UHGV virus genome: UHGV-0036853
DNA length: 64,000 nt
From: a virus
Direction: 5' to 3' (one strand)
Within the stretch, counting starts at the first letter, position 1; every line of letters begins with the position of its first letter. Position numbers: made by a program. Positions 12,001-15,000 of the stretch are shown here, piece after piece.

Positions 12001-15000
12001 TACCGTCATGAGTTCCTTGAGTCTCGCTCACCATATCCAAAGTCGCTTGCAACTTATCAGCTCTCTCTTTTTCAGCAAGATAATGAACACCGAAATGATG
12101 TGCTAAAGCTACAACCTGAGTTGGCTCTTCAAAGGTGGACTCAAAATTAAGTGCTGTAACCACTCTCTCAAATATGGAAACGTCTTCTATTCCTCGAAGA
12201 ATGGCTAACATTTTGACCAGTTCATTAGCATTCATTTCTTCGAATAAGGCGTTTTGTTCATCAGCTATCGCTTTGCATTTCTTGCACATGTGTTTTTCCT
12301 AATGCTTAAACAAGTTGTTTTCTTATTGGCTTTATTGTGATGTGGCATAAAAGGGGAGCAAGCTAAACGTAAAGGTGCAAACTCTCTATTTCGGTCAACG
12401 AAACACAAGGGCCATTTGGCCCTTGTCATTAACACGTTGCTTTACGGACTAGCGGATAAGCGAAGTAGATCGCCAGACCAATGAGGACGCCATCAGAAAT
12501 GACAGACATCATCTTTCCCGTAAAATCCACCAACACCGCCATCACCAGAAGAGCAATGACGGTCACAAGCCGGAATCTCTCAAGCATTAGAGATAAGCAT
12601 CCAGTGACAACTGAAGCGCCTGGGCGATCTTTTTCAGCGCCTGCTCTTCTGGTTCATCAATGCCGTCTTGGTCGGCAATATCAAGGCACAGACACAGTAC
12701 ATCTACTGCATCATCAGTCCCGGCCACATCCGCCAGCTCACGTAAAGCCTGGGCATTAGCACGGCGCGGTGAGGCTTCGTATTGAGCGCGGATATTGGCG
12801 CTCATTTGGGCAATCTCACCAGCAAAAGGAGAAAATGCAGGCAGAGCTGCAATTGTTTTCTCAAGAATGGAAATTTCTTTTGCATCGCATGTACCGTTGG
12901 CATAGGAGATCATGTACCCACCCCACACGGTGGCTTCAACCGCATCACGGTTCTCCATTTTTTTGACTTCGATAACTGCTTTACGAGTTTTCTTTTTGAA
13001 GAAACCTAACATGTGTTTTCCTTTTGTTATTTGTCAAAACAAGTTGTTTTCTAGTTAAATAAATTGCTTACGCAAAGACGGTCAATGCATATGCACTAAC
13101 AACCGTCAGAAATAACCAAGTACCGAACCAACTGGAAAAACAAAAATCCCAACTACACGAGCCAAGGTCATGCCAGCCTGAAACTGGAGATCACCAGAGC
13201 AAACAAGTTTTATAATGTTCGATACCCAACCGGCGGCCATGATGGCCAGAATTGCCAGCCAAATTTTTCCAAAGTGATTTGAAAACCAGTTCATACAACC
13301 GCCTTAGTCACAGCATGATCCTGAGTAACTGGATGAACTTGAGGTATCGCATCCACCGCCATCCCATCCAGAGTGACAGGACGCTCCACTGGAGTGGTGG
13401 TAATTGTCGTCGACGAAGGTATGGTGATGGATGAATCCGGCATCAAAAGGCTCTGACCGGCTGGAACGGCTACCGTCGCCAGTGAAACTATAATGAGAAC
13501 GTAGGCCATTGGTTTCAGCCTCTTTCTTTGAAAATTTTCCATCCGAACGGTCCTTGTTGTTTTTCTCCTTCACTAAAGGCCGTGCATTTTTCGCTTCACA
13601 TGAAGAACTGGAGGTTACAATCGCCCCCACGTTCGCAACAACTGACGCTTGCTTATCTAAACGTGCCTTCAGCACCAGAACGGTAGTTTCCAATTCATCA
13701 AGACGTGACAGAAGGCGACCGCTAAATAATTCGGCCAAAATTTGACGTAAAGAACGAGGGCGTTTAGTTGCAGGAGTTAAAAAAAATTGACGTGCCATAT
13801 GGACTCCATCCAGTGTCAGAAAGAGTTGCGGCTGGCGTTTGCCAGCCGCCTTTCTCGTTCCATCCTGGAACTGTGTCTTACCGACACATTGTCATCCTGA
13901 CGCCGATAAGATACATGATTTAAAATAATAGGTAAACACTTACTTACTACTTATTATAAACAAAACCAATATCTTTCTTGTGAGGCATATCTGCTGCGGA
14001 AAAAGCTGCGATCTTCGCGAGTCGATCACATATTTCATTTTCACGATGCCCGGCGTGACCTTTAACCCACTTCCAGCGAACATTATGTCGACTTGCGGCC
14101 TCATCCAGACGCTTCCACAGATCAACATTCTTTACCGGTTTTTTGTCAGAAGTCATCCATCCATTGCGTTTCCACCATTTCATCCACTGTGTCATGCCGT
14201 TTTTCAGATACTGGCTATCAGAGTGCAAAATAACGTTGCATGGATATTTCAAACGCTCCAGCCCGATAAGTGCCCCCATCATCTCCATGCGGTTATTGGT
14301 GGTGCTATGAAAACCATCTGAGAACTCGCGTTCCTCACCACGATACTGGAGTACTATACCGTAACCGCCCGGGCCACCCGGATTTTTAAGGCAAGAGCCA
14401 TCACTGAAGATTTTCACGGTTTTAAGCTGGGGATTGAACTCTACGACAGGCGTTGTGGGATTGGTGCGGGGAGAATTTTTGTTTTTGTCTTTTTTGCGAG
14501 TTTTTGCTTGCGACCGGGCTGGTGTCTTCGACGTCATATAAACTCCTGAATCAAGCGCCGCGCCGATTTTTTTCCTCGCGCGTGCGCACACGCGTGCGTG
14601 TAATAATTATTAAAATAAACAAATTACTTCCCAGTACAGGTTTTTATAAACCTGAACTGAACGAACGAAGTGAGTGAAGTTCACCTCGAACGAAGTGAGA
14701 GGTTGTCTTTTCAGGTAATACTCTCCCAGGGAGGTGAGTATAAAATTCCTCACCAACCTGGTCGTTTCATAACCTGAAAAGCTATGGTCTAAGTCTACTG
14801 CCAGCTTAGACTTGGGAAGTTATGGATGACAGCACCCCAGAACCGAGATCTTCCCACACTTTATGAAGGGGAGTACTGGATTCAACCTCTCGAAACACCC
14901 CAGACTCGACAATCATAAAGTGACCCTTGTCTCTGCTCACTTTGGTTCCCCCTTCCCCGACACCTAAACGGCACCGGTTCTACGCTGGTAGTGAGCTTTT

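Follow-up and report, generated by a model that had tools for sequence, protein, structure and literature searches.

An SSU5-type phage-plasmid of E. coli carries homologues of phage P1 tciA and tciB, a TerB-family gene followed by a gene for a small membrane protein

The window analysed here, a stretch of 64,000 nucleotides (UHGV virus genome UHGV-0036853), is an SSU5-type phage-plasmid of E. coli and carries on its minus strand two small genes that are homologues of tciA and tciB of phage P1. The upstream gene, a 141-aa open reading frame of the TerB family, runs from 13012 to 12587 including its stop codon (12587..13012), and a Shine-Dalgarno sequence, AAGGA (13019..13023), can be read 6 nt 5′ of its ATG. 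The downstream gene, a 52-aa hydrophobic open reading frame of the DUF3927 family, runs from 12587 to 12429 including its stop codon (12429..12587). The coordinates given in the original prediction hold for reading frames on this strand, except that the pair had been ended at 12432, which is the last sense codon. Overlapping stop and start codons had also been claimed and are indeed present: the sequence TAATG (12585..12589, read from 12589 to 12585 on the coding strand) joins the two genes, with one base shared by the tciA stop and the tciB start. Since no well-placed Shine-Dalgarno sequence precedes tciB, its translation is likely to be coupled to that of tciA.

A terminator-like hairpin of 9 bp, 6 of them G-C (12405..12426, minus strand), starts 3 nt past the tciB stop codon and, judging from its sequence, is likely to mark the end of the transcription unit; a perfect hairpin is found 3′ of tciB in 30 of 69 unique flanks. 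On the upstream side, a near-palindromic motif, GAAAACAAcTTGTTTT on the coding strand, is located at 13035..13051, 25 nt 5′ of the tciA start. This motif has 13 matches in the window, compared with 0.37 expected by chance, and stands 13-36 nt 5′ of eight minus-strand gene starts. The repeated element (GAAAACAAcTTGTTTT; GAAAACAAnTTGTTT) is a candidate promoter or operator of the phage-plasmid. The motif occurs upstream of tciA in 17 of the 69 unique flanks and SSU5-type neighbour genes in about 40 loci, two sets whose overlap was not cross-checked. A further small reading frame, encoding a 62-aa hydrophobic protein of PHROG 6006 (13106..13294), lies 93 nt 5′ of the pair on the same strand and may be co-transcribed with it. 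Forty loci have it in this position and orientation and the others lack it; because its association with the pair is confined to SSU5-type elements, it does not belong to the conserved unit, and we rejected it as a third core component for this reason. It was also considered as a homologue of P1 Upl, which was ruled out because it has no similarity to that protein. The other neighbours of the pair in the window are a methyltransferase gene, an RNase H gene and genes of unknown function.

The upstream gene had been predicted to be TerB-like, and three profile matches agree on this assignment. The protein matches the Pfam TerB family (PF05099) over residues 33-136 (E=1e-5, 26.2 bits, cut-off 24.4), a narrow margin for the single sequence from the window, and most of its homologues carry a precomputed PF05099 match. 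It also matches PHROG 632, labelled 'tellurite resistance', over its full length (E=2.8e-61), and a profile of 38 homologous sequences matches the solved structure of Klebsiella TerB, 2JXU (E=9.4e-7; query 14-135, chain 20-144). The AlphaFold model of TciA has six helices (pLDDT 89.7, pTM 0.86). Its top fold match in the PDB is 2H5N (PG1108; probability 1.0, TM 0.52-0.59, E=0.024), which we take to be a TerB-like fold, and 2JXU is absent from the top fold matches; against a viral structure library the model gives matches with a TM of 0.76. Members of the TerB family presumably contain two acidic A-D-G...E motifs, the second of which is intact in the window protein (A113-D-Q-D-G...E122), while the first reads A38-N39-G40...E46, with N39 in place of the D39 present in 90% or more of the homologues. 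The first 20 residues (MLGFFKKKTRK...) make up a basic tail with a net charge of +5, which begins with LGFF, and the rest of the protein is a bundle of six helices that is acidic overall (net charge -11). Even homologues in which the remainder of TciA is only 32-35% identical, and which are encoded next to a 96%-identical TciB, preserve the tail motif. The dN/dS ratio of 0.07 indicates purifying selection. The 141-aa reading frame therefore encodes a TerB-fold protein with an N-terminal tail of conserved hydrophobic and basic character.

The 52-aa protein matches Pfam DUF3927 (PF13064; E=1.9e-12, 47.4 bits, cut-off 25) and PHROG 1470, 'TciB-like' (E=7.8e-21). These were its sole significant matches in the two libraries, DUF2177 ('predicted membrane protein') falling below the gathering score, and neither library gave any profile similarity to TerC or to holins, so that we rejected TciB as a TerC fragment or as a holin. 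We found no NCBIfam model specific for TciA or TciB. The protein is hydrophobic (GRAVY 1.32), as had been noted from the sequence, but it is not unannotated, since RefSeq lists it as 'DUF3927 family protein' and the record of phage Cyrano as 'P1 TciB-like protein'. Two hydrophobic stretches (approximately residues 7-20 and 33-47) flank a conserved polar core, VDF(T/S)G..S..(S/A)DG, and V20, D21, F22, S28, D32 and L35 are invariant among representatives of 50%-identity clusters, giving a conserved polar stripe with two invariant aspartates; the window protein carries this invariant VDF...S...D..L core. Hydropathy suggests a hairpin of two segments, whereas AlphaFold predicts one continuous helix (residues 2-51) with a confidence that is inconsistent among its five models. 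The median dN/dS of 0.21 again indicates purifying selection. That TciB is a small membrane protein encoded by a real gene is well supported.

The gene tciB lies directly 3′ of tciA in all 86 loci of our first set, and TciB matches in phages adjoin TerB genes at every site checked. The junction is overlapping (TAATG, TGATG, GTGA or ATGA) in 74 of 81 unique loci, with TAATG as the commonest type (39 of 81), and gaps of 0-3 nt are found in six. Pairing is retained amongst phages of Pseudomonas, Pantoea, Salmonella and E. coli in which TciA identity has fallen to 30-40%. We conclude that tciA and tciB form a conserved pair, probably translationally coupled, and consider the identity of the two window genes, together with their pairing, to be almost certain. 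The pair occurs in P1, lambdoid, SSU5-type, N4-like and jumbo phages, including strictly lytic N4-like (Schitoviridae) and jumbo phages, and 555 of 5426 complete E. coli genomes (approximately 10%) match it; it moves as a unit between temperate as well as strictly lytic phages that are unrelated to one another. In lambdoid phages, it is positioned between Q and the lysis genes, directly 5′ of the holin gene S, whereas in P1, SSU5-type and N4-like genomes it does not adjoin the lysis genes. A tblastn search with the lambdoid-type TciB returned its own phage only, a result for which the low-complexity filter is possibly responsible. Divergence is much faster in TciB than in TciA, and alleles have been swapped between lineages, which argues against a tightly co-adapted interface between the two proteins. 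Two apparent natural TciA-TciB fusions containing both Pfam domains were set aside as artefacts: P0085, of the P1 type, has a junction (...LEQLYLMVIK...) that looks like a single-base indel, and P0145, of the lambdoid type, has eight out-of-frame residues at its junction and comes from a draft contig. An AlphaFold model of a pseudo-complex based on the fusion sequence was also dropped, because the short TciB rows had been placed wrongly, beneath the TciA portion, in the MAFFT alignment.

RefSeq (on near-identical plasmids), PHROGs and Pfam already annotate both genes, and the pair is the orthologue of P1 tciA/tciB, to which this locus adds nothing new. The P1 pair (AF234172) has the same gene order, strand and overlapping stop and start codons as that of the window; P1 TciA is 80.1% identical to its counterpart, and P1 TciB, assigned like its counterpart to DUF3927 and PHROG 1470, is approximately 38-39% identical. 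Both loci are accessory and non-essential. Their contexts differ, since the P1 genes are flanked by tRNA genes within the ban operon, whereas those of the window are located between small genes of unknown function and have their own upstream motif and terminator-like hairpin. In P1, the ban operon is controlled by C1 and the pair lies 3′ of the C1 operator; transcription of tciA-tciB has been reported during P1vir infection. A CRISPRi screen classed P1 tciABC as non-essential, knockdown giving no plating defect. P1-like elements have the pair in a variable accessory region, and one survey found it to have been lost from roughly half of the elements of P1 subgroup 1 that it covered. The third P1 gene, tciC, is specific to P1 among the loci that we examined, as apart from P1 itself no locus, nor the window, gave a tblastn match to P1 TciC. 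The widespread pair is therefore defined without it. Adjacency to tRNA genes, which flank the pair in P1, JLK-2012, ChrisDB and ZY21, was considered as a functional clue and rejected, since the 3-kb flanks contain such a gene at only 8 of 60 viral loci and the tRNA genes of the window are 36 kb away.

Amongst bacterial systems, the ter operon, terZABCDE, likewise has a TerB-fold gene directly 5′ of a gene for a membrane protein. TerB has been described as an amphitropic peripheral membrane protein and reported as an interaction partner of TerC, and ter operons have been linked to phage inhibition and to resistance to pore-forming colicins and tellurite. However, TerC is a multi-pass protein, and the 52-aa DUF3927 partner in the window has no detectable similarity to it; TerD, TerZ, TerA and TerE are also missing from the pair. 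Scans of the neighbouring reading frames (9899-14591) with Pfam and PHROGs gave no match to TerC or TerD, and terZ is likewise absent from the locus. The ter phenotypes have been mapped to terC, terD and terZ, with TerC-TerD reported as the minimal functional unit. As TerC is not the partner and TerD, TerZ, TerA and TerE are absent, these phenotypes should not be extended to tciA-tciB, and since terC and terD are lacking, classical tellurite resistance conferred by the pair is unlikely. TerB domains are also present in the validated anti-phage systems Bunzi, Shango and Dionysus, for which membrane surveillance has been proposed, so that the statement in the original prediction that such domains are tied to membranes and to phage-resistance loci agrees with the literature. 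These systems combine a TerB domain with membrane components, as the window pair does, but neither the four-TM pore-forming toxin nor the MAEBL/TM protein of Dionysus has a counterpart in the two-gene unit, and the other partner genes of the three systems are missing as well. Moreover, they reside in bacterial defence islands, whereas tciA-tciB is phage-encoded, including by lytic phages. TciA, TciB and the 62-aa neighbour matched no model in PADLOC-DB 2.0.0 (E<=0.1), a library older than Dionysus (2025).

Some phages combine a TciA-like gene with a different partner. In Pseudomonas phages AF and Ebordelon, it is directly followed by a gene for a small membrane protein, as in the window, and in AF the start of the partner overlaps the TciA stop (ATGA). 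However, the partner in these phages is unrelated: it has 67-73 aa and a single TM segment, carries the motif YGxQTERETxY...FVGCMV and belongs to no Pfam family. Vibrio phage BUCT194, the only relative with TerC, encodes it upstream of the TciA-like gene, and in Pseudomonas phage PMBT3 we found no membrane-protein partner gene adjoining the TciA-like gene. With PMBT3 as a counter-example, a membrane partner appears to be the rule for TciA-type genes.

The explanation that we favour overall, although the balance tips only modestly towards it, is that this P1-type tciA-tciB cassette is a TerB membrane module of lytic growth. Coupled translation of tciB to tciA would ensure that both proteins are made together; TciB would insert into the inner membrane and TciA would act beside it on the cytoplasmic face, held there by its N-terminal tail, by TciB or by both, in an arrangement that would parallel the pairing of TerB with TerC reported for ter operons. 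We consider it reasonably probable that TciA and TciB form a membrane-associated two-protein complex. The module would be accessory and expressed mainly in lytic development, during which it would change or monitor the condition of the infected cell's inner membrane. The positions of the pair in P1 and lambdoid phages, its lytic carriers and its transcription in P1vir infection speak for this timing. The likeliest outcome might be that the ongoing infection is shielded from agents that attack the membrane, for example superinfecting phage or pore-forming colicins, but an exclusion or membrane-protection function is suggested by homology and we put it forward tentatively, with some doubt. The membrane-stress or exclusion module of the original prediction is likewise plausible on grounds of homology. 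Points against the favoured model are the fast divergence of TciB with its allele swapping, the single helix modelled for TciB, the TciA-like gene of PMBT3, the negative PADLOC result and N39 in the first acidic motif. Our literature search found no experiment on what a tciA or tciB gene does.

The names tciA and tciB have long stood in the P1 genome record, and the genes are common in E. coli and in unrelated temperate and lytic phages. TerB domains have recently turned up in validated anti-phage systems. A TerB module of just two genes would lend itself well to studies of TerB domains at membranes. The near-universal coupling to a membrane partner, the apparent interchangeability of partners, the conserved tail and the lytic-phase contexts suggest concrete experiments. 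A more specific proposal, which we regard as speculative and unlikely, is that the pair is a minimal phage-borne TerB module that functions in lytic infection, either in superinfection exclusion or in countering Ter, Bunzi, Shango or Dionysus, and that an interchangeable partner (DUF3927, the unrelated single-TM protein or TerC) docks via the TciA tail. If true, this would provide the first defined function for a pair carried by P1, lambdoid, SSU5-type, N4-like and jumbo phages and by about one tenth of complete E. coli genomes.

Alternatively, the pair could be a defence or conversion module that protects the lysogen, with the resident phage-plasmid giving its host the ter phenotypes of phage inhibition, colicin resistance and tellurite resistance. 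The homology of TciA to TerB of ter operons with those phenotypes, the TerB domains of the validated Bunzi, Shango and Dionysus systems, the variable accessory region occupied in P1-like elements and the cargo position in lambdoid late operons are all consistent with this. However, the carriers of the ter phenotypes, terC, terD and terZ, are absent, including the TerC-TerD minimal unit, and PADLOC models give no match; the strictly lytic N4-like and jumbo carriers have no lysogen to protect, and in P1 the pair belongs to the C1-controlled ban operon. Because lytic phages carry the pair and the P1 ban operon is under C1 control, a role in lytic growth fits better, and we judge lysogen protection to be unlikely.

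A TerB module of lytic growth might instead serve counter-defence or host takeover, in which the phage TerB would mimic host TerB and, with TciB, engage host TerC-family proteins or blunt Ter, Bunzi, Shango or Dionysus, or would adjust the divalent-cation balance in favour of replication. The presence of the pair in lytic phages and its expression during lytic growth agree with this, as does the report that loss of host terC enlarges the plaques of all eight phages tested and, with four of them, slows growth in liquid culture. BUCT194 has its own TerC adjoining the TciA-like gene, and TerC has been tied to zinc and manganese resistance. This reading is nevertheless purely inferential, and a decoy has no obvious need for a dedicated membrane partner. 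To our knowledge, E. coli K-12 and the hosts of many other carrier phages are without a ter operon. We therefore regard counter-defence as improbable.

It is more improbable still that TciB is a small pore-forming or holin-like effector regulated by TciA, in lysis timing or in a manner resembling a toxin-antitoxin system. TciB is short and very hydrophobic, V18, D21, K25, S28, D32 and L35 would fall on one face of the modelled helix, the lambdoid pair immediately precedes S, and Dionysus joins a TerB-like protein with a pore-forming toxin; yet Pfam and PHROGs give no match to a holin or toxin family, the P1, SSU5-type and N4-like pairs do not adjoin lysis genes, and CRISPRi knockdown in P1 left plating unaffected. 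Finally, the notion that the small reading frame arose by chance and that the TerB gene alone is functional, for which its length of 52 aa and the absence of an NCBIfam model might speak, has a negligible likelihood and is refuted by the comparative data: its DUF3927 match is well above the cut-off, its median dN/dS is low, its position, strand and junction are kept across phages with 30-40% TciA identity, and six of its residues are invariant among the cluster representatives.

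The tciA and tciB homologues lie side by side on the minus strand of the window, the former (13012 to 12587) encoding a 141-aa protein and the latter, the next ORF (12587 to 12429), a protein of 52 aa. The junction reads TAATG on the coding strand, so that the TAA stop codon of tciA and the ATG start codon of tciB have one base in common, and the original prediction both placed this ORF pair correctly and recognised its overlapping stop and start. A Shine-Dalgarno sequence (AAGGA) is located 6 nt upstream of the tciA ATG. Inspection of the sequence revealed no well-placed Shine-Dalgarno upstream of the tciB ATG, from which we infer that tciB is translated via coupling to tciA. 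A 9-bp hairpin resembling a terminator (12426-12405) starts 3 nt past the tciB stop codon.

Many non-mobilizable E. coli plasmids of ~110 kb share 95-98% identity with the region containing the pair, as do the Escherichia phages Cyrano, CMS-2020a and PhiR41_1, and Salmonella phage SSU5 matches a 20-kb backbone stretch of the window with 79.5% identity over 62% of its length. On these sequence matches, the window derives from an SSU5-type phage-plasmid. The 141-aa protein narrowly exceeds the gathering score for Pfam TerB (26.2 bits versus 24.4), aligns along its whole length with PHROG 632 'tellurite resistance' (E=2.8e-61) and is 80% identical to TciA of phage P1. The 52-aa protein matches Pfam DUF3927 (47.4 bits versus a gathering score of 25) and PHROG 1470 'TciB-like', with about 38-39% identity to P1 TciB. 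RefSeq labels the tciA homologue 'TerB family tellurite resistance protein' or 'tellurite/colicin resistance protein' and the tciB homologue 'DUF3927 family protein', and in the phage Cyrano record the two appear as 'P1 TciA-like' and 'P1 TciB-like'. Since both genes are labelled in public records, the small ORF is not unannotated, as had been supposed, and the pair is an already known entity. The remaining novelty concerns what a very common phage gene pair does, rather than the locus in the window.

The TerB-like nature of TciA, originally proposed from sequence, was borne out: in addition to the Pfam match, a profile of 38 homologues matched the solved Klebsiella TerB structure 2JXU over almost its full length (E=9.4e-7), and AlphaFold confidently predicted a six-helix bundle (pLDDT 89.7, pTM 0.86) in which residues 1-20 form a low-confidence tail. 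The top PDB fold match of the model was 2H5N (PG1108; probability 1.0, TM 0.52-0.59), a structure with a TerB-like fold, and predicted viral structures matched it with TM 0.76. The tail, MLGFFKKKTRK, is hydrophobic and then strongly basic (net charge +5), and the bundle is acidic (net charge -11). The allele in the window has N39 in the first A-D-G...E motif, a position occupied by D in at least 90% of homologues.

Median pairwise dN/dS was 0.21 for tciB (63 unique sequences) and 0.07 for tciA. Among cluster representatives, TciB residues V20, D21, F22, S28, D32 and L35 are invariant and R6, V18 and P45 nearly so. The comparative data rule out a spurious small ORF and argue that the 52-aa ORF is a real gene. 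An exhaustive TciB search of 1.84 billion representative proteins returned just 16 at E<=0.001, indicating, for a query of 52 residues, that the detectable TciB family is small. Hydropathy analysis places a conserved polar core between two hydrophobic stretches; unlike this two-stretch pattern, AlphaFold predicted a single continuous helix over residues 2-51 (best pLDDT 90.6, pTM 0.48; range 65-91 over five models). If TciB is such a continuous helix, V18, D21, K25, S28, D32 and L35 would lie on one face.

The coupling of a TerB gene to one for a membrane protein proved to be near-universal. In all 86 loci of the first set (80 viral contigs and six phage/plasmid records), the TciB gene is directly downstream of the TciA gene on the same strand, and after start-codon trimming 74 of the 81 unique junctions overlap (TAATG in 39, GTGA in 24, TGATG in 5, ATGA in 5 and one overlap of 8 nt), the others having a gap of 0-3 nt (six) or 70 nt (one). 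The pair is still intact in Pseudomonas phage ZY21, Pantoea phage LIET2, Salmonella phage SP-058 and E. coli phage Evi, where TciA identity is down to 30-40%. The annotated start of the ZY21 TciB homologue (986-1174 in its locus; OM140839) is too far downstream, giving 39 aa; the full ORF encodes 62 aa, starts 2 nt past the TerB stop codon and matches DUF3927 (E=4.2e-8). Conversely, a TerB gene adjoins the TciB gene in every checked phage record found via TciB. In Pseudomonas phages AF (1932-2153 in its locus; JX676771) and Ebordelon (1943-2146), the TciB position directly after the TerB gene is taken by a different single-TM protein of 67-73 aa with the motif YGxQTERETxY...FVGCMV, for which we found no Pfam family; the AF copy is unannotated, and its start codon overlaps the stop codon of the TerB gene (ATGA). 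In the N4-like Vibrio phage BUCT194 (1-2174 in its locus; MZ447858), the gene for a membrane protein of the TerC/Alx family stands between two TerB genes, the second of which is TciA-like and is followed by a soluble 83-aa ORF in place of TciB. Pseudomonas phage PMBT3 was the sole case among the loci examined with no membrane-protein partner gene beside tciA. As a rule, therefore, the phage TerB gene has a membrane partner beside it, and across these loci the usual one is DUF3927.

TciB diverges much faster than TciA, with a median TciB identity of 53% at ~90% TciA identity. Among Ithacavirus siblings, TciB of Salmonella phage FSL SP-076 is 96% identical to that of FSL SP-058 and Shigella phage B2, beside TciA proteins that are merely 32-35% identical and have the N-terminal tail MGLFGFGKK in common. 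This pattern suggests that alleles were exchanged by recombination with a boundary close to where tciA meets tciB, and implies that TciB works with very different TerB partners; the conserved TciA tail is an obvious candidate contact for TciB. The pair is joined by its SSU5-type neighbours, namely ORFs of 164 aa, 62 aa (hydrophobic) and, downstream, 188 aa, in just some 40 loci, and tciC was seen in P1 only among the loci examined, which identifies tciA-tciB alone as the mobile unit. Four clustered tRNA genes (Ser, Thr, Tyr and Asn) are present at 48923-49924, and part of this cluster (~49.3-49.9 kb) shares 91-95% identity with the tRNA/plp/upl region of P1, P7, D6 and RCS47. That region is right beside tciA in P1, and in the window the cluster is 36 kb from the pair. 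Both modules seem to be traded between phage-plasmids of the P1 and SSU5 types.

In P1 the pair has upstream of it the C1 operator of the ban operon, an operon repressed in lysogens. In lambdoid phages it is flanked by the antiterminator gene Q and the lysis genes, the late-operon cargo site occupied by stx in Stx phages. Its other carriers include jumbo Erwinia phages and strictly lytic Schitoviridae. The pair is transcribed during P1vir infection, and CRISPRi knockdown of P1 tciA, tciB or tciC leaves plating unaffected. A survey of P1-like elements showed the operon to be missing, through loss, from almost half of the subgroup 1 members tested. Together, these observations point to an accessory function mainly in lytic development, rather than a lysogen-only conversion gene.

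TerB is reported to interact with TerC, an integral membrane protein, and has been described as an amphitropic peripheral membrane protein, in support of the membrane association originally suggested for TerB-type proteins; from this description of TerB, 'membrane surveillance' has been proposed for the TerB-containing defence systems Bunzi, Shango and Dionysus. By analogy with TerB-TerC, TciB would insert into the inner membrane, TciA would be held beside it at the cytoplasmic face by its own tail and/or by TciB, and the module would monitor the infected cell's membrane or modify its state. The most plausible outcome, offered tentatively, might be protection from superinfecting phage or pore-forming colicins. 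The original interpretation is supported in part: the pairing and the membrane association hold, and the membrane-stress or exclusion role put forward for the pair is a hypothesis. Rival explanations are counter-defence or host takeover by the pair, a holin- or toxin-like TciB and defence of the lysogen, the last to be weighed against the mainly lytic setting; PADLOC models gave no match to TciA or TciB. Tellurite resistance is unlikely, since ter phenotypes map to terC, terD and terZ, with TerC-TerD reported as the minimal functional unit, and ORF and Pfam scans found none of these three genes at the locus.

The window contains 13 matches (<=2 mismatches; 0.37 expected by chance) to a near-palindromic motif, AAACAAGTTGTTTTC (coding strand TAAGAAAACAAnTTGTTTAA), with 15-nt sites at 3453, 8684, 11594, 12308, 13037, 23495, 31743, 45174, 56852 and 58882. 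Eight sites precede the ATG of a minus-strand gene by 13-36 nt, the genes for a DUF4942 methyltransferase, the 188-aa ORF and tciA among them, and most of these starts have an AAGGA- or AGGA-type Shine-Dalgarno ahead of the ATG; two sites directly follow GC-rich hairpins. The motif is a candidate promoter or repressor operator particular to this element. The methyltransferase (9896-11581, minus strand; 561 aa) combines an N-terminal DUF4942 domain with a methyltransferase domain at its C-terminus. It matches mad2 in PADLOC (mads_2; E=2.5e-15) as well as several models for type II methyltransferases, and may serve the phage-plasmid as an orphan or anti-restriction methylase. In E. coli EC42405 (NZ_CP043414.1), a 32-nt spacer of a type I-E CRISPR array beside cas2e perfectly matches tciA (12722-12753; 703-734 in locus L097), and the protospacer has a flanking ATG in crRNA orientation, which is a functional type I-E PAM. 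A spacer directed at this family of phage-plasmids is therefore present in at least one E. coli strain. The 164-aa ORF (13304-13798, minus strand; PHROG 10411) gave no Pfam match in the window's copy, and a sister plasmid's RefSeq record labels it 'BRCT domain-containing protein'. Between it and the RNase HI gene (13947-14591), whose product has an N-terminal extension of ~55 residues, a strong hairpin of 9 base pairs (13828-13849) was detected on both strands.
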